Numbered from the stretch's first letter, positions 1-11,580 are shown. The stretch is 64,000 nucleotides of DNA from Candidatus Saccharimonadales bacterium (GCA_035534875.1 DATLRB010000073.1:35961-99960); one strand, 5' to 3'. Translations and numbers: made by a program. Notes: generated from the letters alone by a model not told the origin.

Positions 1-115
1 CGCAACCGGCAGGAAGACCCAACCCGTCGCCTGGGTCTGAGGGGCCCCGTCCCGGGGGGCGGGGCGGAGGCACTGGTATCATCGACCGCGCTGACGCTTG
101 CCGATGGCGAGCCAG

Positions 116-192
116 GGGCGCATAGCTCAGTTGGTACGAGCGCTGCGTTGACATCGCAGAGGTCATAGGTTCGATCCCTATTGCGCCCACCA
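116..192 (+). tRNA. tRNA-Val (anticodon GAC), 77 nt with encoded CCA
   Basis: Hand-folded cloverleaf: acceptor GGGCGCA/TGCGCCC, D-arm GCTC-AGTTGGTA-GAGC, anticodon stem CTGCG/CGCAG with loop TTGACAT (anticodon GAC), variable loop AGGTC, T-arm ATAGG-TTCGATC-CCTAT, discriminator A, CCA. Confidence 0.85.
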
Positions 193-380
193 TATCGTCA
201 CGTCTCGGGAGATTGGGCCACCTGTCTCACGTCGTTGTGGCAGGGTGGAGGCGGGCGCAGGGCGTTCCCAGGGCTGGCCGCTGTCCTCGAAGTCATGGCG
301 CTGCTGAGTGGATTCCCGCCCGGACACGACCCGGCGCCGCGCGGCGAAGGTTATTGTCGGAAATGTCGCTAACCTTCCCG

Positions 381-394
381 GGACAATATTGTCC
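381..394. promoter_or_regulatory. Perfect 14-bp palindrome GGACAATATTGTCC upstream of the HNH gene (candidate operator near the -35 position)
   Basis: Seen directly in the sequence; the two halves are exact reverse complements. It lies about 24 nt upstream of a TACAAT hexamer. Confidence 0.3.
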
Positions 395-401
395 GTGCTG
401 T

Positions 402-423
402 TCGAACAGGTGTTTGGTACAAT
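402..423 (+). promoter_or_regulatory. SOS-box-like TCGAAC-AGGT-GTTTGG followed by a TACAAT -10-like hexamer immediately 5' of the HNH gene start
   Basis: Matches the mycobacterial LexA consensus TCGAAC-N4-GTTCGA at 10 of 12 defined positions. The TACAAT at 418-423 abuts the GTG at 424, so the real start may be the leaderless GTG at 430. Confidence 0.3.
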
Positions 424-1560
424 GTGTCAGTGGAAGCGTTCGCGATATCTGATGCGCGAGACCGTGTGAATGAGGCTGTCGATGCACTCGTGGACGAGTC
501 CATCGACGATTTCTCGACACACGCCCTGGCCGCGGACCTGATCGACATCCGGCGGGCGATCGATCGGCTCGAAGCAGAGTTCGTCAGCCGCTTGCACCGC
601 TTTCACAGCGATGGCGGGGCGCTGGCCGATGGCGGGGTGAGCACGGTTTCCTGGCTGCGATCTCACTGCGGCATGACGGTGAAGGAGGCCGCCTACCGCG
701 TGCACCTGGCGCGGACGCTTGGCGAGTTGCCGGCAACGCTCGACAGCGCCCGTGCCGGTCGGGCCTCGTTCACCAACGTGACCATGATCGCCCACCTCGC
801 CGAGGACGTCGGCGTGGAGCAGGTGGCGCCGCTCGAGAGCATCCTGGTGGGAGCGGCGGAGACGCTCGAGCCTGGTGCCATGCGTACCCTTACCCAAGCC
901 GTCCGGCTGCGGCTCGACCCCGACGGCGTGCTCGCCGATGACAACCACGCCCATGAGCGCCGCTGGTTCGAGTGCGAGCAGACGTATGGTGGCGTGTTCG
1001 TTTTGCGTGGTGAGCTCGATGCCGAAGGCGGCGCCCTGGTCAAGACCGCGATCGATGCGCTCAGTCACGGCATGAGTCGTGGAGAAACGCGGTCGGGCTC
1101 GCAGCGCCGTGCCGACGCGCTGGTCGATCTTGCCGCCACGCAGCTGCGCTGCGGTGTCCACCGCGATGTGCACGGGCAGCGGCCGCATCTCACGGTCACG
1201 GTGAGCGCGGACACGCTGCGCTCTGGCGCCGGTGCACAGCCAGCCGAGTTGAGCGGCGCGGGTCGGATCCATCCGGAAACCGCGCGCCGCATCGCCTGCG
1301 ACGCGGTGCGGACGGTGGTCACGGTCGCGTCGCCAGCTGATGGTTCGGCTTGGACGGCCATGAGCACGCGTGCGCTGCCTCTCTCAGTCGGACGGGCCAC
1401 GCGCATTGTCCCCGCACATATCCGCAGCGCGCTGCGCCTCCGCGACCATGGCTGCCGCTTCCCGGGGTGCGATCGCCCGCCCGCGTGGACCGATGGCCAC
1501 CACATCATCCACTGGTCGGACGGCGGCCCAACCGAACTCGACAACCTCGTCCATGGTTAA
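424..1560 (+). pseudogene. DUF222 / HNH endonuclease (actinobacterial 13E12-repeat-family type), 5' fragment (378 codons) truncated inside the HNH motif by the insertion
   Basis: The C-terminal ...RFPGCDRPPAWTDGHHIIHWSDGGPTELDNLV is the first half of an HNH motif (HH...N), and the ORF stops 3 codons later (HG*). The missing final-His segment (LCRPHHRAVHEQGW) is found in-frame at 5985-6107. The N-terminal 300 aa are DUF222-like. Confidence 0.8.
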
Positions 1561-1571
1561 TACAACCCCTT
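1542..1571 (+). repeat. Direct repeat copy A (CAACCTCGTCCAT-GGTTAATACAACCCCTT), the left junction of the cassette array
   Basis: A 13-nt core CAACCTCGTCCAT is identical in copies A, B and C, followed by GTTA-N-TACAACCCCTT-like sequence. Similarity extends about 20 nt upstream and 15 nt downstream. Confidence 0.75.
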
Positions 1572-1728
1572 ACGTAGTGGCCAGCTCAGATCGTCCTTGG
1601 TGTCCGACGATGGGTGCTCCTCCCCCCCGGTGCCCGGAGGTCGGCCCGCAGGCAGACACGCTGGTTGCGTCCATCGATGAGCCGCCTGCGACACTGGTCT
1701 ACTGTCACGAGCGCGGGAGGAAACGGCG

Positions 1729-2622
1729 ATGACAGTGTCCGCTTCTCCGGTTGAGCCGAAGGTGCTCTTGGACGGGCTCGCCATGGTCGAGTCACCTCGC
1801 TGGCACGACGGCCGGCTGTGGTTCGCCCACTGGGGTGCGGGCGAGATCCGGGCGGTGGATCTCGACGGCAACAGCGAGGTCATGGGCCATGGCCCGGAGG
1901 GCCTCGGTTGGACGATCGACTGGCTCCCTGACGGACGCCTGTTGGTTACTGGCGCGGAGCTCCTGTGTGTTGGACCCGACGGCTCGTCGGCCCCGTACGC
2001 AGATCTCACCGACATCAGTGAACGCGGTTGGAACGACATCGTTGTCGATGGCCGTGGCAACGTGTACGTCACTAGCATCGCCTTCGACTACCTTGCCGGC
2101 AAGCCTCCTAACGCGGGGATCATCGTCTTGGTGACCCCGGACGGCAGCTCGCGCCAGGTGGCTGCGGGTCTCAAGTTTCCCAACGGCATGGTCGTCACAC
2201 CCGACAACTCGACGCTGATCATCGGCGAGTCCTTCGCCGGTCGACTCACGGCCTTCGACATCGACGCTGCCGGGAGCCTGTCCAACCGCCGCGTGTGGGC
2301 CGAAGGCTTGGGCCCGGATGCCATTTGCATGGACACAGAGGGGGCGATCTGGACCGGGACGGGGGACACCCGGCTCTCTACTGGCCGCGACGATTCGCCC
2401 GGTGGGGCCGTCGCCCGCGTCCGGGAAGGGGGTGAGGAGCTGAACCGGGTTGAACACGACCGCTCGATATTGGGCTGCGCGCTTGGCGGCCCCGACCGTC
2501 GGACGCTGTTCCTCGTCGCGACGGAATGGCGCGGCACCGATCAACTGGACAACGTCCTTGCGGCACGCACCGGACAGGTGCTCATCGCCCCGGCACCGGC
2601 GTCAGGAGTCGGGTGGCCATGA
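1729..2622 (+). CDS. SMP-30/gluconolactonase/LRE-family (SGL) protein, cassette 1 gene 1
   Basis: 297-aa ORF preceded by the RBS GGGAGGAAACGGCG. Beta-propeller-like repeats with a WHDGRLWFAHWGAGEI motif typical of SGL lactonases. Tandem paralog of the next gene. Confidence 0.7.
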   Translation: MTVSASPVEPKVLLDGLAMVESPRWHDGRLWFAHWGAGEIRAVDLDGNSEVMGHGPEGLGWTIDWLPDGRLLVTGAELLCVGPDGSSAPYADLTDISERGWNDIVVDGRGNVYVTSIAFDYLAGKPPNAGIIVLVTPDGSSRQVAAGLKFPNGMVVTPDNSTLIIGESFAGRLTAFDIDAAGSLSNRRVWAEGLGPDAICMDTEGAIWTGTGDTRLSTGRDDSPGGAVARVREGGEELNRVEHDRSILGCALGGPDRRTLFLVATEWRGTDQLDNVLAARTGQVLIAPAPASGVGWP

Positions 2623-3476
2623 GCGGGTGCTCAGTGAGCGACGATGACGGAATGAACGAGACACGCGTCGTGGTTGACGGCTTGGGCTTTCCGGAGTCGA
2701 CGCGGTGGCGCGACGGACGTATCTGGCTGTGCAACTGGGGTGCCGGCGAGGTACTGGCTCTGAGCATCGAGGGCGAGCGCGAAGTGATGGCTCGTCTCGC
2801 ACCGCATACCATTCCGCTGAGCATTGACTGGCTTCCCGACGGGCGAATGCTCGTCGTCGACGGGCCAGGAGGTAGGCTGCTGCGTCAGGAGCCGGACGGA
2901 ACGCTGGACATCGTGGCGGATCTCACCGCCTTCGGCAGCCCGCCGTTCAATGAGATCGTGATCGACGCAACCGGGAACGCGTATGTGAACGGTGGACCGG
3001 GAGTTATCCGTGTGCAGCCGGACGGGGGCATGCGCAAAGTCGCCGACGGCCTGCCCTGGCCCAACGGTATGGCGCTGGTCGACGATGGCCGCACGCTCGT
3101 CGTCGCTGATTCGCGCGCCGAGCAGCTCGTCGCGTTCGAGGTGGCGGACGACGGGACCCTCTCAGACCGCCGCGTCTGGGCCGACCTCGAGCACGCGCCC
3201 GACGGCATCTGCGCGGACGCAGACGGAGCTGTGTGGGTTGCGAGCGTTCCCGGTCAGCGCTGTGTGCGGGTGCGGGAGGGCGGCGACGTGCTCAACACGG
3301 TCGCCGTTGATCGAGGGTGCTTTGCCTGCATGCTCGGAGGCGAGGACGGTACGACGCTATTCATCGCGGCCGCCGAATGGCACGGGATGGAGGCGGCGAT
3401 GAGCGACGGGCCCGATTGGACCGGGCAGTTGCTCGCGGCGCCCAACCAGCCTGCACCGCACGCAGGCCACCCTTAG
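2619..3476 (+). CDS. SMP-30/gluconolactonase/LRE-family (SGL) protein, cassette 1 gene 2
   Basis: ATGA overlap with the upstream gene. The protein MSGCSVSDDDGMNETRVVVDGLGFPESTRWRDGRIWLCNWGAGEV... is collinear and about 40% identical by eye to the upstream paralog. Confidence 0.7.
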   Translation: MSGCSVSDDDGMNETRVVVDGLGFPESTRWRDGRIWLCNWGAGEVLALSIEGEREVMARLAPHTIPLSIDWLPDGRMLVVDGPGGRLLRQEPDGTLDIVADLTAFGSPPFNEIVIDATGNAYVNGGPGVIRVQPDGGMRKVADGLPWPNGMALVDDGRTLVVADSRAEQLVAFEVADDGTLSDRRVWADLEHAPDGICADADGAVWVASVPGQRCVRVREGGDVLNTVAVDRGCFACMLGGEDGTTLFIAAAEWHGMEAAMSDGPDWTGQLLAAPNQPAPHAGHP

Positions 3477-3532
3477 GCGCCCCGCCCAGCTCCACCTACT
3501 CCGCTGGGGCGTCGCGGGACGACGGCCCCTGG

Positions 3533-3562
3533 CAACCTCGTCCATCGTTAAAGCATCCCCTT
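3533..3562 (+). repeat. Direct repeat copy B (CAACCTCGTCCAT-CGTTAAAGCATCCCCTT)
   Basis: Same 13-nt core. In the HNH frame it reads G-N-L-V-H-R-stop. Confidence 0.75.
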
Positions 3563-3670
3563 TCCAAGCCCGCCGAGTGGGATCTGCTTCGGCCAGATCG
3601 CGACCGAGGTCGCCGGCGCTGCCCCGGTTCGGTAAGTACCATTGGACGCGTGGCTGACGGTTTCGTGCGG

Positions 3671-4165
3671 ATGCCTGGGGAGGGCGATCGGATCTCCCCT
3701 GCCATGAAGCTCAAAGTGGGCGACAGGCAGTCCGAGTGCTTCTCCGTGTTCGAAGTGGTCGACATCGGGCCAGGTTTCGACGTCGGGGCGCACCTGCATC
3801 ACAACGCCGAGGAGATGTTTTACGTCCTGGAGGGCGAGCTCGACTTGCTCGCTTTCGAGCCGCGGGTTCGGACGCCCACCGACTGGCAGCACTGGGAGTC
3901 TCACAGCGGGGCCAAGGTGGCTCGGGGCCGCCCGGGCAGTTTCATGTTCGTCCCGCACGGCTGCCCGCACGCTTTCGCCAACCCGGGCCCTGGCCTGGCT
4001 CGGATGATCTTCCTCGTTGCGCCGCCCGGTCACGAGCATTACCAAAAGGAGCTTGCGGAACTGGTGGTCAGAGCTACCGGCCCCTTGGACGAGGCGATCG
4101 GGCAGCTGCGGGCCCGTTACGACATCGAGCAACTCACCCCCCAGGTGGTGCCCAGGCCGCGCTAG
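3671..4165 (+). CDS. Cupin-domain protein, cassette 2
   Basis: Cupin motifs G(x)5HxH(x)3,4E ... GxxxxxPxGxxHxxxN are present as GAHLHHNAEEMFYVLEGE ... FMFVPHGCPHAFAN. The start could also be the ATG at 3704. Confidence 0.6.
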   Translation: MPGEGDRISPAMKLKVGDRQSECFSVFEVVDIGPGFDVGAHLHHNAEEMFYVLEGELDLLAFEPRVRTPTDWQHWESHSGAKVARGRPGSFMFVPHGCPHAFANPGPGLARMIFLVAPPGHEHYQKELAELVVRATGPLDEAIGQLRARYDIEQLTPQVVPRPR

Positions 4166-4486
4166 TTGGTCGCCGAGGAGAGCCCGCTGGGAGCTGTTGC
4201 CGGGCTGATCCGCGACCCCCTATGGCAGCGCCAAGCGCGCCGAGTAGACGCAGGTAAGACGCTTCTCGGTGCACCCGGAGCTCAGGACAAGCTGCTAGAC
4301 GCCCTCGTCGAGAGACCACTGGCAGACAGCACGATGAACGTGCGTCGACTAGGCTCGTCTGGCCCGGTGGCCACTTGCGCCTTACATCGACTCCGGGGGG
4401 TCCCTCCAGGATCGCCCACCAACAACCAACACGACAGAGGTAGGGCGCGTAGACCAACGGAGGGCGTGGTTTCCAACAGTTACGGC

Positions 4487-4516
4487 CAACCTCGTCCATT
4501 GTTAGTACAACCCCTT
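4487..4516 (+). repeat. Direct repeat copy C (CAACCTCGTCCAT-TGTTAGTACAACCCCTT)
   Basis: Same 13-nt core. In the HNH frame it reads A-N-L-V-H-C-stop. The element-side 17 nt match copy A at 15 of 17 positions. Confidence 0.75.
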
Positions 4517-4732
4517 CCCAGGGGCCACATGAGATCAGCGACGGCTCGCTAGTTTTGGTGGATGACGCTTGAGCAGGTAGCCGTTGCTCAAGACGGTCAG
4601 AGGCCGGGCACAGCCGGGAGCCGCAGCCACGACCTGCCGCCGAGATAGCTCCTTCGTTTGCGAGCTTCGAAGGGGCCAAATCACGGACGAGCTCGGCGCT
4701 CGCTTTTACGAATGCGTGCCTCGCAAGATATC

Positions 4733-5101
4733 ATGTCAGACATGACCGAGGACCGCGACCTGACCGAGTTGCGCCGTGGGGTGCTCGGTCCGTGCGTCCT
4801 CGCTCTCCTGGAGGAGCGCACCCGGTTCGGACTGGAGCTGGTGCGTGACCTGGCGTCCGCAGACAGCCTGCTGACGAGCGATGGGACCGTCTACCCCCTA
4901 CTCAACCGGATGCGCGACGCGGGGTTGGTGACCAGCGAATGGCGGGACGAGTTGAGAGAGCGGCCTCGCCGCTACTACGCGATCACCGCGGCGGGTCGGA
5001 GGCACCTCGCCGCGTTCCGGGCGGAGTGGCCCCGGTTCTCAGCGACCGTTTCCGAGGTATTGCGCAGCCCGGCTTTCGCCGTCGTGAGTGACGACAGATG
5101 A
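4733..5101 (+). CDS. PadR-family transcriptional regulator, cassette 3 gene 1
   Basis: 122-aa winged-helix protein with the PadR signature ...GYEL..L....GTLYPLL.RLE..G... (here GLELVRDLASADSLLTSDGTVYPLLNRMRDAGLV). A 13-bp palindrome CATGTCAGACATG overlaps its start codon. Confidence 0.7.
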   Translation: MSDMTEDRDLTELRRGVLGPCVLALLEERTRFGLELVRDLASADSLLTSDGTVYPLLNRMRDAGLVTSEWRDELRERPRRYYAITAAGRRHLAAFRAEWPRFSATVSEVLRSPAFAVVSDDR

Positions 5102-5976
5102 GCAGCGTCATGGAAAGAGACGACCGCGTACGAGCCTACCTCAGTGAGCTCGAGAGAGAGCTGCGAGTCTTGCCGGCACCGCAGGCTACCGAGCTGATGG
5201 AGCAAATCAGCGCCCACCTCGACGAGGCCCTGCCCCGGGGCAGCGCAGAGGAGACGGTGGCGGCGGTGCTGCGCCGGCTCGGCTCCCCCGCGAAACTGGC
5301 CGCTGAAGCGAAAACCACTGAGAGGCTCGACGAAGAGGCGCCCGAGATCGCCCGTTCGAGGTCGCCCCTTCGGCACCGGTACGGCTGGCGGGGCTGGGGC
5401 GCGATCGCGGCTGGCCTGGCCCTAGGGTGCGTCCTGACGACGTTGCTCGGGCTGTACATCGCAACGCCGAGCCTCTCTATCGGCGGTTCCTCAGCGTGGT
5501 GGTACCCGCAGGACCAGGCTCGGGCGGTCTATTCGTCGACGCTCGGCGCAGCCGCAACGACGGTTCCTGCTCGCCGCGCGCAGTGGCAGGGGTTCGTGGT
5601 CGAGGTGGAGAACCCAAGCAGCTCGGCTCAGACCGTCCTGGGCATGGCCTCTTCCACGGACAGCCCCACCGGCTTGGTCGGCATGGCCAACGTCACCGAC
5701 GTCAAGGTCGGCGTGTCCACGTACTCCAACTACACCGGCGCGGCGCCCAACTTTCAGAGCATGCACTTCACTACCGGGCAGACCATCCAGCCAGGCCAGT
5801 ACCGCTTCATCAGGGTGATCTGGATGACGGACCCGTGCAGCCTGGCCAATGGTTCCGGCTTAACCGGAACTGCCCAGGTGAACCTGGAGGTGCAGGTGGG
5901 CTGGTTCTCGCGCGAGGAGAACCTGACCCTCGATCCCGGCTGGCAGCTCTCGCTTGGGCTCGACTGTTCCGGCTGA
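5098..5976 (+). CDS. Membrane protein with an N-terminal DUF1700-type (HAAS-like) helical domain, the usual PadR-associated partner; cassette 3 gene 2
   Basis: ATGA overlap with padR. The N-terminus YLSELERELRVLPAPQATELMEQISAHLDEAL resembles DUF1700. A predicted TM helix (WGAIAAGLALGCVLTTLLGLYIA) is followed by a Ser/Thr-rich extracytoplasmic domain. Confidence 0.55.
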   Translation: MSSVMERDDRVRAYLSELERELRVLPAPQATELMEQISAHLDEALPRGSAEETVAAVLRRLGSPAKLAAEAKTTERLDEEAPEIARSRSPLRHRYGWRGWGAIAAGLALGCVLTTLLGLYIATPSLSIGGSSAWWYPQDQARAVYSSTLGAAATTVPARRAQWQGFVVEVENPSSSAQTVLGMASSTDSPTGLVGMANVTDVKVGVSTYSNYTGAAPNFQSMHFTTGQTIQPGQYRFIRVIWMTDPCSLANGSGLTGTAQVNLEVQVGWFSREENLTLDPGWQLSLGLDCSG

Positions 5977-5984
5977 TCCTCCCC

Positions 5985-6107
5985 TGCGGGAGCACGACCC
6001 TCGCGAACCTGGTCTCCCTGTGCCGGCCGCACCACCGCGCGGTGCATGAGCAGGGTTGGCGCCTCCATGTCGCTGACGGAGTTGCCGTCGTGGAGCCGCC
6101 GCCCTGA
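5985..6107 (+). pseudogene. DUF222/HNH endonuclease 3' fragment (final HNH histidine segment), separated from its 5' part by about 4.4 kb
   Basis: Encodes CGSTTLANLVSLCRPHHRAVHEQGWRLHVADGVAVVEPPP-stop. STTLANLV is a diverged duplicate of PTELDNLV at the end of the 5' fragment, and LCRPHHRAVHEQGW completes the HNH motif. Confidence 0.7.
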
Positions 6108-6166
6108 CGATCGTGCGACGCGGCAGGCAGCGTTTCCGGCGAGCGATCCTTGACCAGTACCGGCTC

Positions 6167-6739
6167 TCACCCGTCTGGTGTTGACCCCTTATCCGGCACG
6201 TTTCGGGATTCTGCGCGCTCGCGCCAACCGGTGGGGAAGCCAGGGTCCCACGCCGGGGTCTGTTTGCCGTCGAACAGGAACTGCTCGAGGTGGGTCACGA
6301 CGAAGCGGTGATCCTCAACCTGTGGCAGTCCGGACACCGCGACGGTGCCGACGCAGCCGCTCGACTCGACGAGGATCGGGAATGCTCCGCCGTGGGCGGC
6401 GAACTTCGCAACATCGAGGCGGGAGTCCCTGTCGAAGTCAAGTCCGTCGGCGCGAAATTTGCAGCCCACGAAATATGAGGAGTGCCCGTAGCGTTCAACC
6501 ACGGCTGCCTTGCGGAGCAGCCACGCATCGTTGTCAGCCGATGAGCCCGGCAGCGCGGCGTGGAACAGGCACTGACCGTTGCGCCGGATGGAGATCGCCA
6601 CCGGCAGGCGCAGCTCCAGCGCGGCGGCGCGCAGGTGCGACCCGAGCTCCCACGCGGTGTCGTGGTCGAAGTGGGAGAACACCAGACGCTCCTCTTCCGC
6701 AAGCAGCGTCGCAAGCAGCTCGGCCGGGGCTTCGCTCAT
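6167..6739 (-). CDS. DUF336 (GlcG/HbpS-like, heme-binding-type) protein
   Basis: GGAFPI motif (AAHGGAFPILV) and GxxGxVAVSG motif. ATGA overlap with the upstream oxidoreductase gene. Confidence 0.6.
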   Translation of the reverse strand: MSEAPAELLATLLAEEERLVFSHFDHDTAWELGSHLRAAALELRLPVAISIRRNGQCLFHAALPGSSADNDAWLLRKAAVVERYGHSSYFVGCKFRADGLDFDRDSRLDVAKFAAHGGAFPILVESSGCVGTVAVSGLPQVEDHRFVVTHLEQFLFDGKQTPAWDPGFPTGWRERAESRNVPDKGSTPDG

Positions 6740-7767
6740 GACCCGGCCACCGCAACCACCACGCCGTTCAGGGCGCTCGATCTGGCTGCCTCCAGCACCG
6801 TCGCGGTCGCGACGGCGTCATGAGGATCGACGGGCGGTGCATTGTCACCGCGCACGGCCCCGGCGAACGTCGAATAGAACAGATCCCAGCGCCCGCGCTC
6901 GGTGGCGTACGGCGTGGACGCGGTCCCGGTGTGCAGCGTGCCGTAGCTGTCCGGGGACTCGACGCCCCAGTGATCCGCTAGCGACGCCGGCGTTTCGCCG
7001 GCAAGCAGCGCGTTCTCCTGCGTGTCCGCGGGACCGAGCACGTAGGTCGCTTCGGCACCGGTGACCCGGTATCGGGGGCCCGGCGCCGACTGGCTCCAGC
7101 TTCCCCACAGGTGGGACCGGGCGCCGCCCACGTGCGTCAGCGCGATAAACACATCATCGTCGAGACCCGACTCGCGGATGCGCAGTTCCGCGTAGACGCT
7201 CACGGCCGGTCCGAGCAGGACCAGAGCCTGGTCGACGAGATGGCTCCCGAAGTCGAGCAGGGTGCCGCCACCGGACTTCCCGGGCCCCCGTTGGGGCGCG
7301 AAGCGCTCGAACCGCGACTCGAAGCGGGTCATGGTCCCGAGCGTCCCGTCGGCGGCCAGTTTTCGGACGGTGCGGAAATCCGAATCCCAGCGCCGGTTCT
7401 GGTACGGGCTCAGTATCGAACCACGTGCATCGGCCAGGGCGACCGTCTGCCGGGCGGCTTCGGGATCGAGCGCGAACGGCTTGTCGCAGACGACCGCCAG
7501 TCCCAAGGCAATGGCCTGTTCGGTCAGGCTGGAATGCGTGTCGGCGGGGGTGGAGATGGCCACCGCCTCGACCCCCGCGTCGACGAGAGCGCTCAACGAG
7601 GCGAAGGTCGGCGTGCCCGGGATCTCGCGAGCAACCAGCGCCTGACGCTCCGGCGACGACGTCATCACCCCGATCAGGTCGCACTCAGGAGCTGACGTGA
7701 TCAGTGGTGCGTGGAAATACCGGCCGCCAAAACCGTAGCCGACGAGGCCAAACCGTACTGGTGTCAT
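6736..7767 (-). CDS. Gfo/Idh/MocA-family NAD(P)-dependent oxidoreductase
   Basis: N-terminal Rossmann motif RFGLVGYGFGGRYFHAPLI. 343 aa. Confidence 0.75.
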   Translation of the reverse strand: MTPVRFGLVGYGFGGRYFHAPLITSAPECDLIGVMTSSPERQALVAREIPGTPTFASLSALVDAGVEAVAISTPADTHSSLTEQAIALGLAVVCDKPFALDPEAARQTVALADARGSILSPYQNRRWDSDFRTVRKLAADGTLGTMTRFESRFERFAPQRGPGKSGGGTLLDFGSHLVDQALVLLGPAVSVYAELRIRESGLDDDVFIALTHVGGARSHLWGSWSQSAPGPRYRVTGAEATYVLGPADTQENALLAGETPASLADHWGVESPDSYGTLHTGTASTPYATERGRWDLFYSTFAGAVRGDNAPPVDPHDAVATATVLEAARSSALNGVVVAVAGS

Positions 7768-7814
7768 CGCCGTCCCCTCATGTTGCTGTCAGGCGAGATG
7801 CGCTCCGGCGTCGC

Positions 7815-8822
7815 TCACCGCTCACCTGGATACACGACGCCGACCGCGGCTCGAGCGTCGTCAAGGATTTCCAGTATGGCGATCGTATCGGCATGCTGGA
7901 TGAGCGGGCTCTGCATGAGTCCGGCGCGAAGGCAGCGCTCGACCTCCTCGATCTCCGGTCCGTAGCCGTTCCCCTGTCCGGCCAGGGGGTCGTCGGTACG
8001 CTCCTCGCCCGCAGCGTTGTGCAAGATGAGGCCGGTGGGGCGATATGCCTCGGGGAGGAACGAGATCCAGCCCTTGCTGCCAAGGATGGCCGCTTCGTTG
8101 GGTGCGTGGATTGGCGCCGAGGTCCAGAGCTGCGCCCCCGGGTGACCGCCGTACATCCACTGCATCGCCACCGTCTCATCGGATCCGGTTGGAGAGAGCG
8201 TCCCCACGGTGTGGACCTCGTCCGGGGGTCCCATGAAGAGATACGCGAACGTGACCGGGTACACCCCGAGGTCGAGCAGCGCGCCGCCCCCGTTGGCCAG
8301 CTCGTAGAGGCGATGCGTCGGGTCGAACGGGAGGCCGAGCCCGAACTCGTTGCGCACCCCGCGCACCTCGCCGATCGCTCCGTCGGCGATCAGGCGCTGT
8401 GCCTTGCGGATCAGCGGGTTGGTGCGAGTCCACATCGCCTCCATGGCGAAGACGCCGGCCTGTGTCGCGGCAGCAAACACCTCTCGGGCGTCTGCGGCGT
8501 TGAGGCAGACGGGCTTCTCGATGAGCACCGCCTTGCCGGCTTCGATCGCCATGAGGGCGTGCGCACGGTGGTGCGGATGCGTGGTCGAGACGTACACGAC
8601 GTCGACCTCGTCGTCGTCGACGAGCGAGGTGTAGTCCGCATAACTACGGGCTGCCCCGTGGCGCGCGGCGAACCGCGCGGCGCGGTCTGCGTCACGGGCG
8701 GCAACGGCGGTGACGACGTTGCCCCTGGTCAGGTTGATGTCGTTGCTGACGGTGTTGGCGATGCCGCCCGCGCCGAGGATTCCCCAGCGAATTGGACGGC
8801 CGTCGGCGATCGGTATGGGCAT
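7815..8822 (-). CDS. Gfo/Idh/MocA-family NAD(P)-dependent oxidoreductase (sugar dehydrogenase-like)
   Basis: Start chosen at MPIPIADGRPIRWGILGAGGIA (Rossmann motif). The EKP motif is present (VLIEKPVCL). The upstream part of the track ORF is discarded. Confidence 0.75.
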   Translation of the reverse strand: MPIPIADGRPIRWGILGAGGIANTVSNDINLTRGNVVTAVAARDADRAARFAARHGAARSYADYTSLVDDDEVDVVYVSTTHPHHRAHALMAIEAGKAVLIEKPVCLNAADAREVFAAATQAGVFAMEAMWTRTNPLIRKAQRLIADGAIGEVRGVRNEFGLGLPFDPTHRLYELANGGGALLDLGVYPVTFAYLFMGPPDEVHTVGTLSPTGSDETVAMQWMYGGHPGAQLWTSAPIHAPNEAAILGSKGWISFLPEAYRPTGLILHNAAGEERTDDPLAGQGNGYGPEIEEVERCLRAGLMQSPLIQHADTIAILEILDDARAAVGVVYPGER

Positions 8823-8838
8823 GTGCTCGCTTCCTGTG

Positions 8839-10554
8839 TTAGTGGGATTCGCGGGAGACGGTGCTGCCGGTCGATCCCAGCAGGAAGTCGAGATCCGCTC
8901 CGGTGTTGGCCTGCTGGACGGTCTGCACGTAGAGCCGCTCCCAGCCGCGGAGCGGGTTCGCGTAGGCGCTGACGGTTGCGCTGTCGGCGGCGCGTGCCGC
9001 CAGTTCCTCTGCGGAGATGTCGATATCGAGACGCCGGGCATCGACGTCGAGGATCACCATGTCGCCGGTTCGCACCAGCCCGAGCGGACCCCCGGCGGCC
9101 GACTCCGGACAGACGTGGAGCACCACCGTGCCGTACGCGGTCCCGCTCATCCTGCCGTCACAGATGCGAACCATATCGCGCACGCCTTGCTGCAGGAGTC
9201 TGGCCGGCAGCGGCATGTTCGCCACCTCGGGCATCCCCGGATACCCCTTCGGGCCGCAGCCGCGCATGATCAGGACTGAGTCCGCGTCGACGTCCAGGTC
9301 CGCGTCGTCGATGCGCGCATGCATGTCCTCGATCGAGTCGAACACCAGCGCGCGTCCGCGATGTTGCAGCAGGTGTGCGGATGCCGCAGCCGGCTTGATC
9401 ACGGCGCCCCCTGGAGCCAGATTGCCGTACAGGATCGCGATGCCGGCGTGCGGTTGAATCGGCTGGGCTCGCGGGTGGATGACCTCGGTGTCCCAGATCC
9501 GCACCTCGCCCAGGTGATCGACGAGCGGTCTGCCCGTGACCGTGCGAGCGGTCGGGTCGAGGAGGTCCTGGACTTCGCGCAACACGGCCTGGAGCCCGCC
9601 GGCGCGGAAGAAGTCCTCCATCAGGAAGCGACCGGCGGGCTGCAGGTCGACAAGCAGCGGAACCTGTGAACCGGTGACGTCGAAGTCGTCCTGTGTGAGT
9701 TCGACACCGAGCCGGCCGGCGATGGCGAGCAGATGGACGACCGCATTGGTCGAGCCGCCGATCGCCGCCAGGGTGACGATGGCATTGAGGAACGAACCGC
9801 GTGTGAGAAGGCTCGACGGCGTTCTCTGCGCCGCGACCATCTCCACGGCAAGACGGCCGGTATCGTGCGCGCCCTCGAGGAGACGGCTGTCGGCGGCCGG
9901 GGTCCCCGCCAGGCCGGGCAGGACCATCCCGAGCGACTCCGCGAGCAATCCCATGGTCGACGCGGTGCCCATGGTGTTGCAGTGGCCGCGGCTCCGGATC
10001 ATCGACGACTCCGACCTGATGAACTGGGCTTGGGAGAGGGTCCCCGCCCGAACCTCCTCCGACAGGCGCCAGACGTCGGTGCCGCAGCCGAGCGCCTGGC
10101 CGCGGAACGTGCCGGTGAGCATCGGCCCCCCGGGAACCACGACGGCGGGAAGGTCGACGGACGCCGAGGCCATGAGCAGCGCCGGGATGGTCTTGTCGCA
10201 CCCACCGAGGAGGACCACCCCGTCGATCGGGTTGGCACGCAGCATCTCCTCGGTGGCCATGGCGGCCATGTTTCGCCAGAGCATCGCCGTGGGCCGGACC
10301 AGCGTCTCACCGAGCGAGACCACCGGCAAGTTCAGCGGGATGCCGCCCGCCTCGAAGACGCCCTGTTTGACGCTCTCGGCGACCTCATTCAGGTGCGCGT
10401 TGCAGGGGGTGAGGTCCGAGGCGGTGTTGGCGATGGCGATGTGAGGGCGGCCGTCGAACGCGTGCGCGGGCAGGCCACGCCGCATCCACGCCCGATGGAT
10501 GTAGGCGTTGCGATCGGTGCCCGCGTACCACTGCCCGCTGCGCTGCTCCGCCAC
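8839..10554 (-). CDS. IlvD/EDD-family sugar-acid dehydratase (arabinonate/xylonate dehydratase-like)
   Basis: The N-terminal RSGQWYAGTDRNAYIHRAWMRRGLPAHAFDGRPHIAIANTASDLTPCNAHL matches the pentonate dehydratase signature. CxxC and Ser motifs of the IlvD/EDD family lie downstream. Start uncertain: the GTG at 10554 was chosen, but it could extend to the ATG at 10734. Confidence 0.75.
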   Translation of the reverse strand: MAEQRSGQWYAGTDRNAYIHRAWMRRGLPAHAFDGRPHIAIANTASDLTPCNAHLNEVAESVKQGVFEAGGIPLNLPVVSLGETLVRPTAMLWRNMAAMATEEMLRANPIDGVVLLGGCDKTIPALLMASASVDLPAVVVPGGPMLTGTFRGQALGCGTDVWRLSEEVRAGTLSQAQFIRSESSMIRSRGHCNTMGTASTMGLLAESLGMVLPGLAGTPAADSRLLEGAHDTGRLAVEMVAAQRTPSSLLTRGSFLNAIVTLAAIGGSTNAVVHLLAIAGRLGVELTQDDFDVTGSQVPLLVDLQPAGRFLMEDFFRAGGLQAVLREVQDLLDPTARTVTGRPLVDHLGEVRIWDTEVIHPRAQPIQPHAGIAILYGNLAPGGAVIKPAAASAHLLQHRGRALVFDSIEDMHARIDDADLDVDADSVLIMRGCGPKGYPGMPEVANMPLPARLLQQGVRDMVRICDGRMSGTAYGTVVLHVCPESAAGGPLGLVRTGDMVILDVDARRLDIDISAEELAARAADSATVSAYANPLRGWERLYVQTVQQANTGADLDFLLGSTGSTVSRESH

Positions 10555-10653
10555 GTTGACCCCCTTGCCGTTGACCCGAACGGGGCTCGATGACCAGGCC
10601 CTATATTGTCGAGCCCTGATGGCAGTGCGTTGCGGCCGCTTCGCCGTCACCTC

Positions 10654-11580
10654 GTGAAACGGTTTCGCGCACGTCCTGCCAGCGAGCAACGCTACGGTCT
10701 CGGCGAGGGACCGGTCTGGGACGGCCAGCGCCATCGCGTGCTCTGGGTCGACATCAACGCCGGCGCTGTGCACACCGGAACCATCGACGCGGAGCGCGTG
10801 ACACAGGACAGCGTCCTTCGACTCCCCGGAACGGTGGGTGCGGTGGCATGTGCCCGAGACGGAGAGCTCCTCGTGGCGGGAGCCCGCCGGCTGTACCAGG
10901 TCTCACCGGAGGGCGCTGTCGGCCTCGGCCCGGAGCTCATCGCTGATGGCAGGGCGAGCAGGTTGAACGACGGCGCGTGCGATCCGGCCGGGCGGTTTCT
11001 GGTCGGCAGCCTGGCACTCGACGACCGCGCGTACGACGAGGTCCTCCTGCGAATAGATGGGAGGGGTCAGATCGACGTGATCGATGACGACCTGGGCATG
11101 TCGAACGGCCTCGCCTTCTCGCCTGAGGGCGACCGGCTGTACAGCATCGACACCCTTTCCAGAATCGTCTGGAGCCGTGCGTACAACTGGCGCACGGGTG
11201 CCATCGGGAGCCGCCGCGAGTTTCTGCGCCTCGCTGGCAGCCCCGACGGGATGTGTGCCGACGATCTGGGAAACCTGTGGATCGCGATCTGGGGTGCCGG
11301 CCAGGTGTGGTGCTACTCGCCGGCGGGACAGCACCTGGCGGTGGTCGACGTTGCGGCGCCGAACACGACGAGCGTCGCCTTCATCGGGACCAGCCTCGAC
11401 ACGCTCCTCATCACAACCGCCTCAGAGCAACTCTCCGACGCCCAGCGTGCGCGTTACCCGGACTCCGGCCGGTTGTTCACCGCCCGTGTCGAGGTCGGCG
11501 GCGTCCCCGCCCCGCAGTGGGCGGGCGCGCTCGCATGGCCGGACCAGACCGGCGCCGCCATGACCGCCCGAAGTCGATGA
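10654..11580 (+). CDS. SMP-30/gluconolactonase/LRE-family lactonase (third paralog in the window)
   Basis: YGLGEGPVWDG signature, repeated propeller blades, and a C-terminal SGRLFTARV motif. Start uncertain: GTG at 10654 versus TTG at 10606, which sits inside a TATATT hexamer. Confidence 0.7.
   Translation: MKRFRARPASEQRYGLGEGPVWDGQRHRVLWVDINAGAVHTGTIDAERVTQDSVLRLPGTVGAVACARDGELLVAGARRLYQVSPEGAVGLGPELIADGRASRLNDGACDPAGRFLVGSLALDDRAYDEVLLRIDGRGQIDVIDDDLGMSNGLAFSPEGDRLYSIDTLSRIVWSRAYNWRTGAIGSRREFLRLAGSPDGMCADDLGNLWIAIWGAGQVWCYSPAGQHLAVVDVAAPNTTSVAFIGTSLDTLLITTASEQLSDAQRARYPDSGRLFTARVEVGGVPAPQWAGALAWPDQTGAAMTARSR

Follow-up and report, generated by a model that had tools for sequence, protein, structure and literature searches.

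A 64,000-nt stretch of DNA filed under Candidatus Saccharimonadales (GCA_035534875.1, DATLRB010000073.1:35961-99960; the whole stretch is referred to here as the window) contains three gene cassettes arranged in tandem within a single interrupted gene of the DUF222-HNH family. Each cassette begins with an element-specific module (P′), continues with cargo and ends with an arm. We think it probable that this array was inserted site-specifically into the sequence GAC AAC CTG GTC (D-N-L-V) of one multi-copy DUF222-HNH gene. The same boundary sequence is found in arrays from many soil Candidatus Dormibacterota, which points to an integron-like gene-capture system that has not been described previously: the literature on integrons and HNH genes in Dormibacterota, and on integrase-less integron-like systems, yielded no description of such cassette arrays.

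The insertion is evident from comparison with an uninterrupted allele. When the 5′ and 3′ fragments of the HNH gene are joined (at NLV/SLC) the resulting protein is 100% identical to an intact protein of 404 aa (P0001), the top match in a protein search, which is encoded on a 1,633-nt JGI metagenome contig (L047); several array contigs come from that sample series. L047 corresponds to window 148–1551, which covers the 5′ fragment (99.86% identity), running directly into window 6000–6165 (98.2%). It is evidently the empty allele of this locus: relative to it, the window carries a clean insertion of 4,463 nt (1552–6014). This backs the proposal, made in an initial annotation of the window, of site-specific integration into the HNH gene. 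In a DNA profile of the full gene the 5′ fragment stops at position 1124 of 1218 and the 3′ fragment matches positions 1111–1218. The open reading frame (ORF) at 424–1560 reads on from the HNH fragment into the first cassette, terminating ..HHIIHWSDGGPTELDNLVHG followed by a stop at 1558–1560 (H-G-stop); it encodes a complete DUF222 domain (Pfam 1.3e-32) and positions 4–34 only of the 47 that make up HNH. The remaining end of the HNH domain is found in the 3′ fragment, which reads SLCRPHHRAVHEQGW..VVEPPP-stop. The same protein search returned >1,100 relatives, of which the best 120 are 76–100% identical and mostly ∼404 aa in length with both Pfam domains; the docking gene is therefore a member of a multi-copy, largely intact family.

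Alignment of the empty site with the two junctions (see table) sets narrow limits on the crossover. The partners are distinguished by the bases directly left of AACCT and by the single base right of it (C or G), all of which segregate cleanly; this places the exchange within AACCT, at most AACCTSGTC, inside GAC AAC CTG GTC. Target and cassette core have 8/9 nt in common. Since nine nucleotides with one mismatch are far below the needs of RecA-type recombination, the integration is site-specific. Four junctions at other loci have AACCTGGTC preceding (C/A)AT, which would fit either a short overlap in which the mismatch resolves either way, or cassette variants that bear the G.

Within the window the left-hand boundary of each cassette is a copy of one repeat. 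The 18-nt pattern CAACCTCGTCCATNGTTA (17 specified bases) has exact copies on the forward strand at 1542, 3533 and 4487 (copies A, B and C) and is found nowhere else in the 64 kb, even at up to three mismatches; the number expected by chance is 0.08, and 0/100 shuffles reached three. A repeat search grouped the same three copies as a family (D1). As the initial annotation had it, the internal copies re-terminate the HNH frame: each reads N-L-V-H-x-stop, the stops being TAA, TAA and TAG. Downstream sequence said to be common to all three copies is present in A and C (GTTARTACAACCCCTT and then GGCC), but B departs from it (GTTAAAGCATCCCCTT).

The sequence upstream of cores B and C had been read as a decayed copy of the HNH fragment. 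Compared without gaps from the anchored end over 20 nt, identity to the resident HNH gene is 11 for B, 9 for C and 10 for the right-end arm, against a null with a mean of 5.8, a 95th percentile of 9 and a 99th percentile of 11; in local alignment B beats chance (p ∼0.01–0.03), but C (p 0.4) and the right end (p 0.7) do not. Any HNH signal in the arms of the window itself is thus weak. The 13-nt deletion between CAACC repeats that had been invoked to bring the sequences into register is unnecessary: no end-anchored match is better than that of the ungapped register. Nor do the arms duplicate a segment of this HNH gene: flanks and empty allele agree at 99.9%, but the right-end arm matches the resident arm at only 10 of the 20 positions adjoining the core, so the arm arrived with the cassette.

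The repeat family extends far beyond the window. In the genome collection an exact-pattern scan picked out 17 loci, among which were 12 metagenome-assembled genomes (MAGs) of Candidatus Dormibacterota, one contig near-identical to the window and three chance matches; a scan of the metagenome collection gave 29 further loci. A repeat model (a profile built from the first copies) recognized 70 copies. At least 57 of these are distinct; they are spread over 44 loci, nearly all belonging to Candidatus Dormibacterota according to the taxon labels of the MAG records. Copies occur as same-strand arrays of 2–5 with a spacing of 0.6 to ∼2.4 kb, and there are a few larger units. Where both ends are visible, the array starts with a DUF222-HNH gene cut at the same codon (..NLV/HR-stop) and closes with an HNH 3′ piece, the latter being seen in the window, L001, L006, L010 and L016. 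In nine loci HNH-derived sequence stops at profile position 1124/1125 (of 1218). Six of them have long 5′ fragments that end there (window, L002, L010, L015/L036, L023 and L029), and L007 and L021 have short 66-nt arms that do so; tblastn detected the same end in L031 and L034. The HNH gene of L010 is only 30% identical to that of the window, but has the same junction nonetheless.

Two contigs stand apart by label: L015 (DATKQX010000163.1), the 6.3-kb near-identical contig, is filed as Candidatus Saccharimonadales, and the array-bearing L010 (CAVXRI010000014.1) as Alphaproteobacteria. Given that nearly all other relatives are Dormibacterota, both labels are probably binning errors; alternatively, in the case of L010, the system may extend beyond Dormibacterota. 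Solitary repeats were encountered in L022, L030 and L041, that of L030 having an arm that is not HNH-like followed by >11 kb without another repeat or HNH piece. The plasmid collection gave no match to window 1–7000 by megablast. A scan of viral contigs with the P′ core returned 9 matches, all of them low-GC chance matches without AACCTCGTC upstream, and an exact look-up of the SGL protein encoded in the window returned no record, which we attribute to a one-residue or start-codon difference.

That the cassettes are separate mobile units emerges from an all-against-all comparison of loci: a given cassette is found in more than one array, and identity is lost exactly at AACCTCGTC. The SnoaL cassette present in L001, L006 and L040 has the same 3′ arm (..GGCGGAGCGGCACAGCTCTSGCC AACCTCGTC) and is followed by three different P′ modules. 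Identity between L006 and L040 begins 1–4 nt before the core AACCTCGTC, with unlike arms to the left, and the same holds for L006 and L016; the likeness of L033 to L040 ends ∼8 nt past a conserved block of 27 nt described below. Because shared cassettes break at the core, the left arm must move with the upstream cassette and P′ with the downstream one, and the unit is P′, cargo, arm. The repeat is accordingly a composite, as first proposed: its left arm resembles the target and its right arm is specific to the element. Copy A of the window and L045 have the same P′ module but different cargo. Between the MTHFR and SnoaL genes of three loci lies a scar (ACATTTGCGCATACTGACG/TGGGCGAG) that unites the outer edges of a long arm and a P′ module; L040, L006 and L027 have lost a boundary repeat there by deletion, so that a single cassette now stands in place of two.

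The 97 proteins encoded in cassettes or downstream of them are a mixed accessory set. SnoaL-like proteins (7), alpha/beta hydrolases (5) and PQQ propellers (3) recur; other cargo includes MTHFR, SGL, aldo-keto reductase, glyoxalase, ABC and MacB efflux, RtcB, a TIR protein and an OLD-family nuclease. Cargo genes are found on both strands (L002, L009, L018 and L044). Past the last detected repeat of L002, on the minus strand, lie a TIR-domain protein and an OLD-family (AAA_21 + TOPRIM) nuclease (record 3631–4539 and 1269–2984), and from these units some cassettes may carry anti-phage defence genes. In L008 (445–1159) two repeats are 640 nt apart with no ORF call between them, possibly a cassette devoid of ORFs (a simple GC3 filter underlies the gene calls in the loci). 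The cupin cargo keeps ∼65–120 nt of its own upstream region. Together with that region, the cupin cargo of the window is found at 82–95% DNA identity in three unrelated chromosomal contexts that have neither the repeat nor an HNH gene. In the closest relative (L065, 95%) homology runs from window 3584, right after the inverted repeat of P′, to the cupin stop codon. These contexts hint at how cargo might be recruited into cassettes. One of them adjoins an IS21-type transposase pair.

Details of the site were obtained from 49 internal copies. The block AACCTCGTCCATCGTTAATACAACCCC (+0 to +26, 27 nt) is 78–100% conserved per position and in most copies supplies an in-frame stop (CAT NGT TAR). Several types of P′ sequence follow beyond +27, the commonest being CTCGAGGGCCGCCGAGTGAGATCAGCGTCGGCTGGGCGAG. 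Conservation of the arm is 35–88%, with positions −12, −11, −17, −5 and −3 the best. Fourteen long arms at other loci (66–80 nt) read (I)DGHHxxHWxxGGxTxLxNLV in the HNH frame, which is often intact. The proximal 55 nt of these arms have an identity of 0.67 to real HNH genes and of 0.65 among themselves; the distal part, for which the values are 0.57 among arms and 0.45 to HNH, carries a motif (TCAACnTACATTTGCGGATTGAC / TACATTTGCGGATTGAC) that is not present in HNH genes. The shared distal motif, together with the proximal similarity values, indicates that the arms descend from one another, perhaps being refreshed by gene conversion from many HNH copies. A second class of arm, represented by five copies (..GCAGTTGGATGGCC), has no HNH likeness, and window copy C looks, by eye, closer to this class. 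An HNH origin of the arm is firm at the family level only.

Several long arms (L006 6038–6197, L001 3404–3559, L007 and L031) preserve an open HNH frame, and most of their changes affect the variable positions of the motif; where an arm meets the HNH 3′ end at a right junction the two are continuous in frame, as in L006 (IDGHHILHWADGGATELENLVSLCRPHH). The open frames could be due to conversion by genuine HNH genes or to expression of a short remnant of HNH.

No structure was detected in the site. DNA folds of six copies/strands gave z-scores of −1.5 to +0.6, no better than shuffles, RNAalifold found no consensus pairs among 26 copies, and the two short inverted repeats of P′ showed no covariation above shuffles. 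Rfam, applied to window 1–7000 at a permissive threshold, matched only a tRNA. A promoter reading of the core (TCGACA .. TAATAC) was discarded: judged by eye, the spacing of 14 nt is wrong.

On the basis of these data a mechanism can be proposed. A cassette begins with its P′ module, comprising the near-invariant 27-nt block with its in-frame stop and a variable 30–60 nt, continues with cargo genes in either orientation along with their own upstream regions, and ends with a left arm that imitates 20–80 nt of the HNH gene just 5′ of the crossover. Its excision would yield a circle that brings arm, AACCTCGTC and P′ together as one site, whose partner in recombination would be AACCTSGTC, either of an HNH gene or of a junction already present. 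After insertion a junction would consist of the arm of cassette n, the core and the P′ of cassette n+1, and the last arm of the array would abut the displaced HNH 3′ end. By mimicking the left side of the target the arm would serve as the left half-site; the right junction (arm, AACCTGGTC and HNH 3′ end) would then resemble the target again, as proposed in the initial annotation. The recombinase would be encoded outside the cassettes. Our guess is a tyrosine recombinase with an overlap region of 6–9 bp, which would fit a C/G mismatch that resolves either way, but a serine, bridge-RNA-type or HUH enzyme may be responsible instead.

Such an enzyme is not linked to the array. Annotated genes within 10 kb on either side include no recombinase family, and no integrase or remnant was found in ∼45 distinct cassettes by phmmer, tblastn or domain annotation. 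The seeds were gamma-delta resolvase, Bxb1 integrase, XerD and the IS608 transposase TnpA, along with two local integrases. Across the loci collected up to then and the 64-kb window, tblastn with tyrosine, serine and HUH seeds returned only two integrases of tRNA islands, besides one spurious match; the two tyrosine integrases and XerD gave nothing in the window. The spurious match, to the serine seeds (Bxb1, gamma-delta), lies at 56.5 kb (94 aa, E 0.007), inside the ORF of an MFS transporter. Neither island integrase is a candidate for the array enzyme: that of L033 adjoins tRNA-Phe in a classical island, and that of L036 belongs to an island in tRNA-Val that is not in the window. As regards elements of the IS200/IS605 or IS91 (HUH) kind, which have subterminal hairpins at both ends, the IS608 TnpA seed gave no match, a weak test with one seed that leaves room for a trans enzyme elsewhere in the genome, and putative hairpins lack covariation. 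With no recombinase in the cassettes, nearby or in the window, the enzyme would act in trans.

A number of observations weigh against site-specific assembly of cassettes as set out above. The loci were gathered with core-derived patterns and conservation of the core is thus partly built in; the extra copies that the repeat model found in the same loci, however, were not forced by the core pattern. For some repeats no HNH fragment is visible, and >11 kb without a further repeat follow (L030); small cassettes do not account for every unit. In the window, arms B and C and the right-end arm are only weakly HNH-like, and the five arms without HNH likeness weaken the idea of the arm as a required half-site. 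The empty allele rests on one metagenome contig of 1.6 kb; no recombinase was found, and neither a circular form nor a free cassette was seen. Moreover, a 27-nt identical core could allow some RecA-dependent shuffling between arrays.

The array could have other origins. The cassettes might be decayed remnants of tandem, once self-sufficient elements, prophage- or island-like, that lost their integrases. DUF222-HNH (REP13E12) repeats are the attachment target of phiRv1 in Mycobacterium tuberculosis, tandem accretion at one attachment site is common for integrative elements, and some repeat-bounded units are large (8 kb in L029; >11 kb in L030, with an AAA_25 protein). We nonetheless judge this unlikely: none of the ∼45 cassettes retains an integrase remnant, most are 0.6–2.4 kb in length with one or two accessory genes, the sites are intact and highly conserved, the same small cassette appears in different arrays with exact boundaries, and the attL of a serine integrase is, as is well established, not a substrate for integration. 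The initial annotation had instead kept in reserve unequal homologous recombination or gene conversion among HNH paralogues, each with a different downstream gene, that would leave stacked 3′ ends. Here one can point to a gene that is multi-copy and similar among its relatives (76–100% identity for the best 120 of >1,100), to the REP13E12 loci, which undergo gene conversion in M. tuberculosis and are hotspots for it, to the long arms whose HNH-like frame fits occasional conversion from real genes, and to a 27-nt core of sufficient length for rare RecA events. Comparison of the empty and filled alleles contradicts this for the integration step. The intact paralogues checked at the DNA level have no P′ (∼404 aa, NLVSLCRPHH, ending (V/I)EPPP-stop), target and cassette site have only 8/9 nt in common at the crossover, the mismatch of the right-end arm stands beside flanks all but identical to the empty allele, and relatives of the cupin cargo sit in non-HNH contexts; the paralogue explanation is accordingly most improbable.

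It could also be argued that the ∼100–165-nt repeat is itself the mobile entity, a non-autonomous element akin to a miniature inverted-repeat transposable element (MITE) that lands between genes, with the cassettes being merely the ordinary genes in between. In favour of this, the repeat is short and abundant, is restricted to a single lineage and in places stands alone (L022, L030, L041), and cargo genes keep their own upstream regions. We find this very hard to credit, given that the empty allele reveals the whole 4,463 nt, and not a repeat unit, as the insertion, that each end has half a repeat only (P′ at the left, arm at the right), that arrays start and finish in the two halves of one HNH gene, and that there are neither terminal inverted repeats nor a target duplication. 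A role for the nuclease is conceivable if an intact DUF222-HNH protein were to cut unoccupied HNH copies at the sequence coding for its own motif, with repair from an occupied copy transferring the array. The target does belong to the gene family that encodes the nuclease, the site is lost on insertion, and homology of 80–90% in the flanks (>1 kb 5′ and ∼100 nt 3′) would favour repair. Homing of this kind would, however, move whole arrays and leaves unexplained the cassette boundaries at AACCTCGTC, the 27-nt core and the cassette-borne arms, while cleavage of this site by this nuclease would have to be assumed; we consider homing very unlikely. Site-specific insertion of cassettes therefore remains our preferred explanation.

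Among known systems the closest logic is that of the integron, yet the tests that define an integron failed. Both have small mobile cassettes of mostly accessory genes that lack a recombinase of their own but bring their own site, one docking site and exact boundaries; the possible ORF-less cassette (L008) and the fused cassette pair (L040, L006, L027) are further likenesses. In integrons, however, the tyrosine recombinase gene intI lies beside attI, whereas here there is no integrase at the docking site or within 10 kb of it. The attC site is an imperfect palindrome (R''-L''/L'-R') whose single strand folds as a hairpin, with a GTTRRRY core; here there is no attC-like fold, and GTTAATA, GTTAAAG and GTTAGTA do not fit that core. 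Integron cassettes are mostly promoterless, in a single orientation and driven from Pc, whereas those described here have genes on both strands with their own upstream regions. Finally, the docking site is inside coding sequence and the lineage is Dormibacterota.

Tandem islands in tRNA genes offer a second parallel, one that the initial annotation had drawn. In both, the unit carries part of the target, the junctions are direct repeats and target-like sequence is rebuilt at one end: target-like copies are indeed present at the cassette boundaries, in the form of 20–80-nt arms homologous to HNH sequence 5′ of the crossover. The parallel breaks down at the outcome. Islands have their own integrase and restore a functional tRNA, whereas these units have none and the HNH gene stays broken, its 5′ fragment ending ..NLVHG-stop and its second HNH half detached in the 3′ fragment. 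The copied segment lies 5′ of the crossover, and so the gene is not restored. An example of a tRNA island is found next door, in tRNA-Val of the sister contigs L015/L036.

As for phiRv1, the target is likewise a repeated DUF222-HNH family that acts as an attachment site (Bibb and Hatfull reportedly described attachment of phiRv1 in the REP13E12 repeats in 2002). Unlike the cassettes, phiRv1 is a single element of ∼10 kb with a large serine integrase and an excision factor; none was found here with the Bxb1 and gamma-delta seeds. Recombinase-less modules are also known from Xer/dif recombination, where integrative mobile elements exploiting Xer (IMEX) at dif, and the dif modules of Acinetobacter, have short conserved sites and an enzyme encoded elsewhere and can form arrays. 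The resemblance is to modules without a recombinase of their own that accumulate in arrays between short conserved sites. The dif site, though, is a 28-bp dyad of 11-6-11, whereas the 27-nt core described here (AACCTCGTCCA TCGTTA ATACAACCCCC) shows, by eye and as read from the alignment, neither dyad symmetry nor dif likeness, and crossover is at the left edge of the conserved block and not in its middle.

Features of the window, and of the loci compared with it, are collected in the table. Matches to the repeat model around cassette 1 extend over 1514–1602 and 3509–3598, and the gene calls for this cassette were taken from contig L049.

Coordinates of the array, its docking gene and the related loci (positions are those of the window unless a locus is named)
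Feature	Position	Strand	Details
tRNA-Val(GAC)	116..192	+	ARAGORN; Rfam tRNA 68.7 bits; directly 5′ of HNH gene
DUF222-HNH 5′ fragment (docking gene)	424..1551	+	truncated after ..GGPTELDNLV
HNH target site			sequence GACAACCTGGTC within DUF222-HNH gene
Left-junction crossover segment	1543..1551	+	AACCTCGTC; L047 vs both window junctions
Cassette 1 (1,991 nt)	1552..3542	+	P′ module, two SGL-family genes, left arm B
Cassette 1 P′ module	core to 1569, then ∼70 nt	+	the ∼70 nt common to L045
SGL-family genes, cassette 1	1729-2622 and 2619-3476	+	Pfam SGL 2.6e-33 and 4.4e-31
Left arm B with AACCTCGTC	∼3490-3542	+	3′ end of cassette 1
Cassette 2 (954 nt)	3543..4496	+	P′ module, cupin gene, left arm C
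Cassette 2 P′ module	3543-3583	+	core and GCCGAG..TTCGGC inverted repeat
Cupin gene, cassette 2	3704-4165 (earlier start: 3650-4165)	+	Pfam Cupin_1, Cupin_2
Left arm C with AACCTCGTC	∼4450-4496	+	3′ end of cassette 2
Cassette 3 (1,518 nt)	4497..6014	+	P′ module, PadR, HAAS-domain protein, right-end arm
PadR gene, cassette 3	4742-5101	+	Pfam PadR 8.2e-20
HAAS-domain membrane protein gene, cassette 3	5098-5976	+	Pfam HAAS 1.2e-11
Right-end arm	∼5975-6005	+	then AACCTGGTC at 6006-6014
HNH 3′ fragment (SLCRPHHRAVHEQGWRLHVADGVAVVEPPP-stop)	6015..6107 (start ∼6015)	+	98.2% identity to L047 1468-1633
Empty site	L047		..ACCGAACTCGAC AACCTGGTC TCCCTGTGCCGG..; ..CTCGAC AACCTGGTC TCCCTG..
Window left junction			..ACCGAACTCGAC AACCTCGTC CATGGTTAATAC..; ..CTCGAC AACCTCGTC CATGG..
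Window right junction			..ACGACCCTCGCG AACCTGGTC TCCCTGTGCCGG..; ..CTCGCG AACCTGGTC TCCCTG..
Cupin relatives	L065 6914-7496; L066/L067 6975-7516; L068 6998-7498
MTHFR-SnoaL scar	L040 6798-6890; L006 1203-1296; L027 ∼6150-6245

The HNH copy that received the array is an old resident and the array a newcomer, as follows from the uninterrupted HNH gene found at the syntenic locus in related species (L048, L063 and L064). Across these species the locus has MFS, KsgA and TatD genes upstream and HbpS-like and GFO_IDH_MocA genes downstream (L048 6001–13218; L063/L064 ∼10001–11209; window 424–9041). The genes just 3′ of the syntenic HNH gene differ, being SnoaL and a 1,204-aa cyclase/AAA_16/TPR protein in L048 and cyclases in L063 and L064, and no boundary repeat is present; these varying, repeat-less genes imply a second source of variation, independent of the repeat, at the same spot.

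The tRNA-Val gene upstream of the HNH gene is context and lies outside the cassette system. Identity of the sister contigs L015/L036 to the window (99.9%) starts only at 148, inside this tRNA gene, the last 45 nt of which are common; upstream of that junction they carry other DNA with a lipoprotein gene, an ECF sigma factor and, ∼4.5 kb off, a tyrosine integrase. The layout, read in L036 on the minus strand of its record, resembles that of a classical island inserted into tRNA-Val, with a 45-nt repeat of the tRNA 3′ end; one strain would have the island and the window lacks it. Within cassette 1, a contig from another sample (L050, 13397–14488) has a DDE_Tnp_1 transposase gene abutting the terminal TTAG of SGL (window ∼3473–3476), with the contig end close by, and L052 breaks off at the same point, which suggests a polymorphic insertion sequence inside the cassette.

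Integrons, known from few phyla, are to our knowledge alone among well-defined systems in stacking recombinase-less cassettes at a fixed site. The arrays described here, which we class as site-specific cassette arrays, have a fair chance of being a new platform in their own right: they look like a second, independent cassette platform, in an uncultured phylum of soil and permafrost, distinguished by a different site architecture and by a docking site inside a repeated nuclease gene. More tentatively, in a proposal that we hold as a serious possibility without yet favouring it, Dormibacterota would have invented the integron idea a second time, with selfish, multi-copy DUF222-HNH genes docking recombinase-less cassettes of bipartite site (an HNH-mimicking arm and the 27-nt core), which would be inserted, stacked and exchanged by an unlinked enzyme, perhaps of a kind that has so far not been linked to the movement of cassettes. 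The defined attB/attP-like sequences and the natural empty/filled polymorphism provide a starting point for finding that enzyme, which could prove useful as a site-specific recombinase. If true, the DUF222-HNH (REP13E12-type) repeats, puzzling so far, would gain a function as landing pads, and the range of ways in which bacteria assemble accessory genes would be wider.

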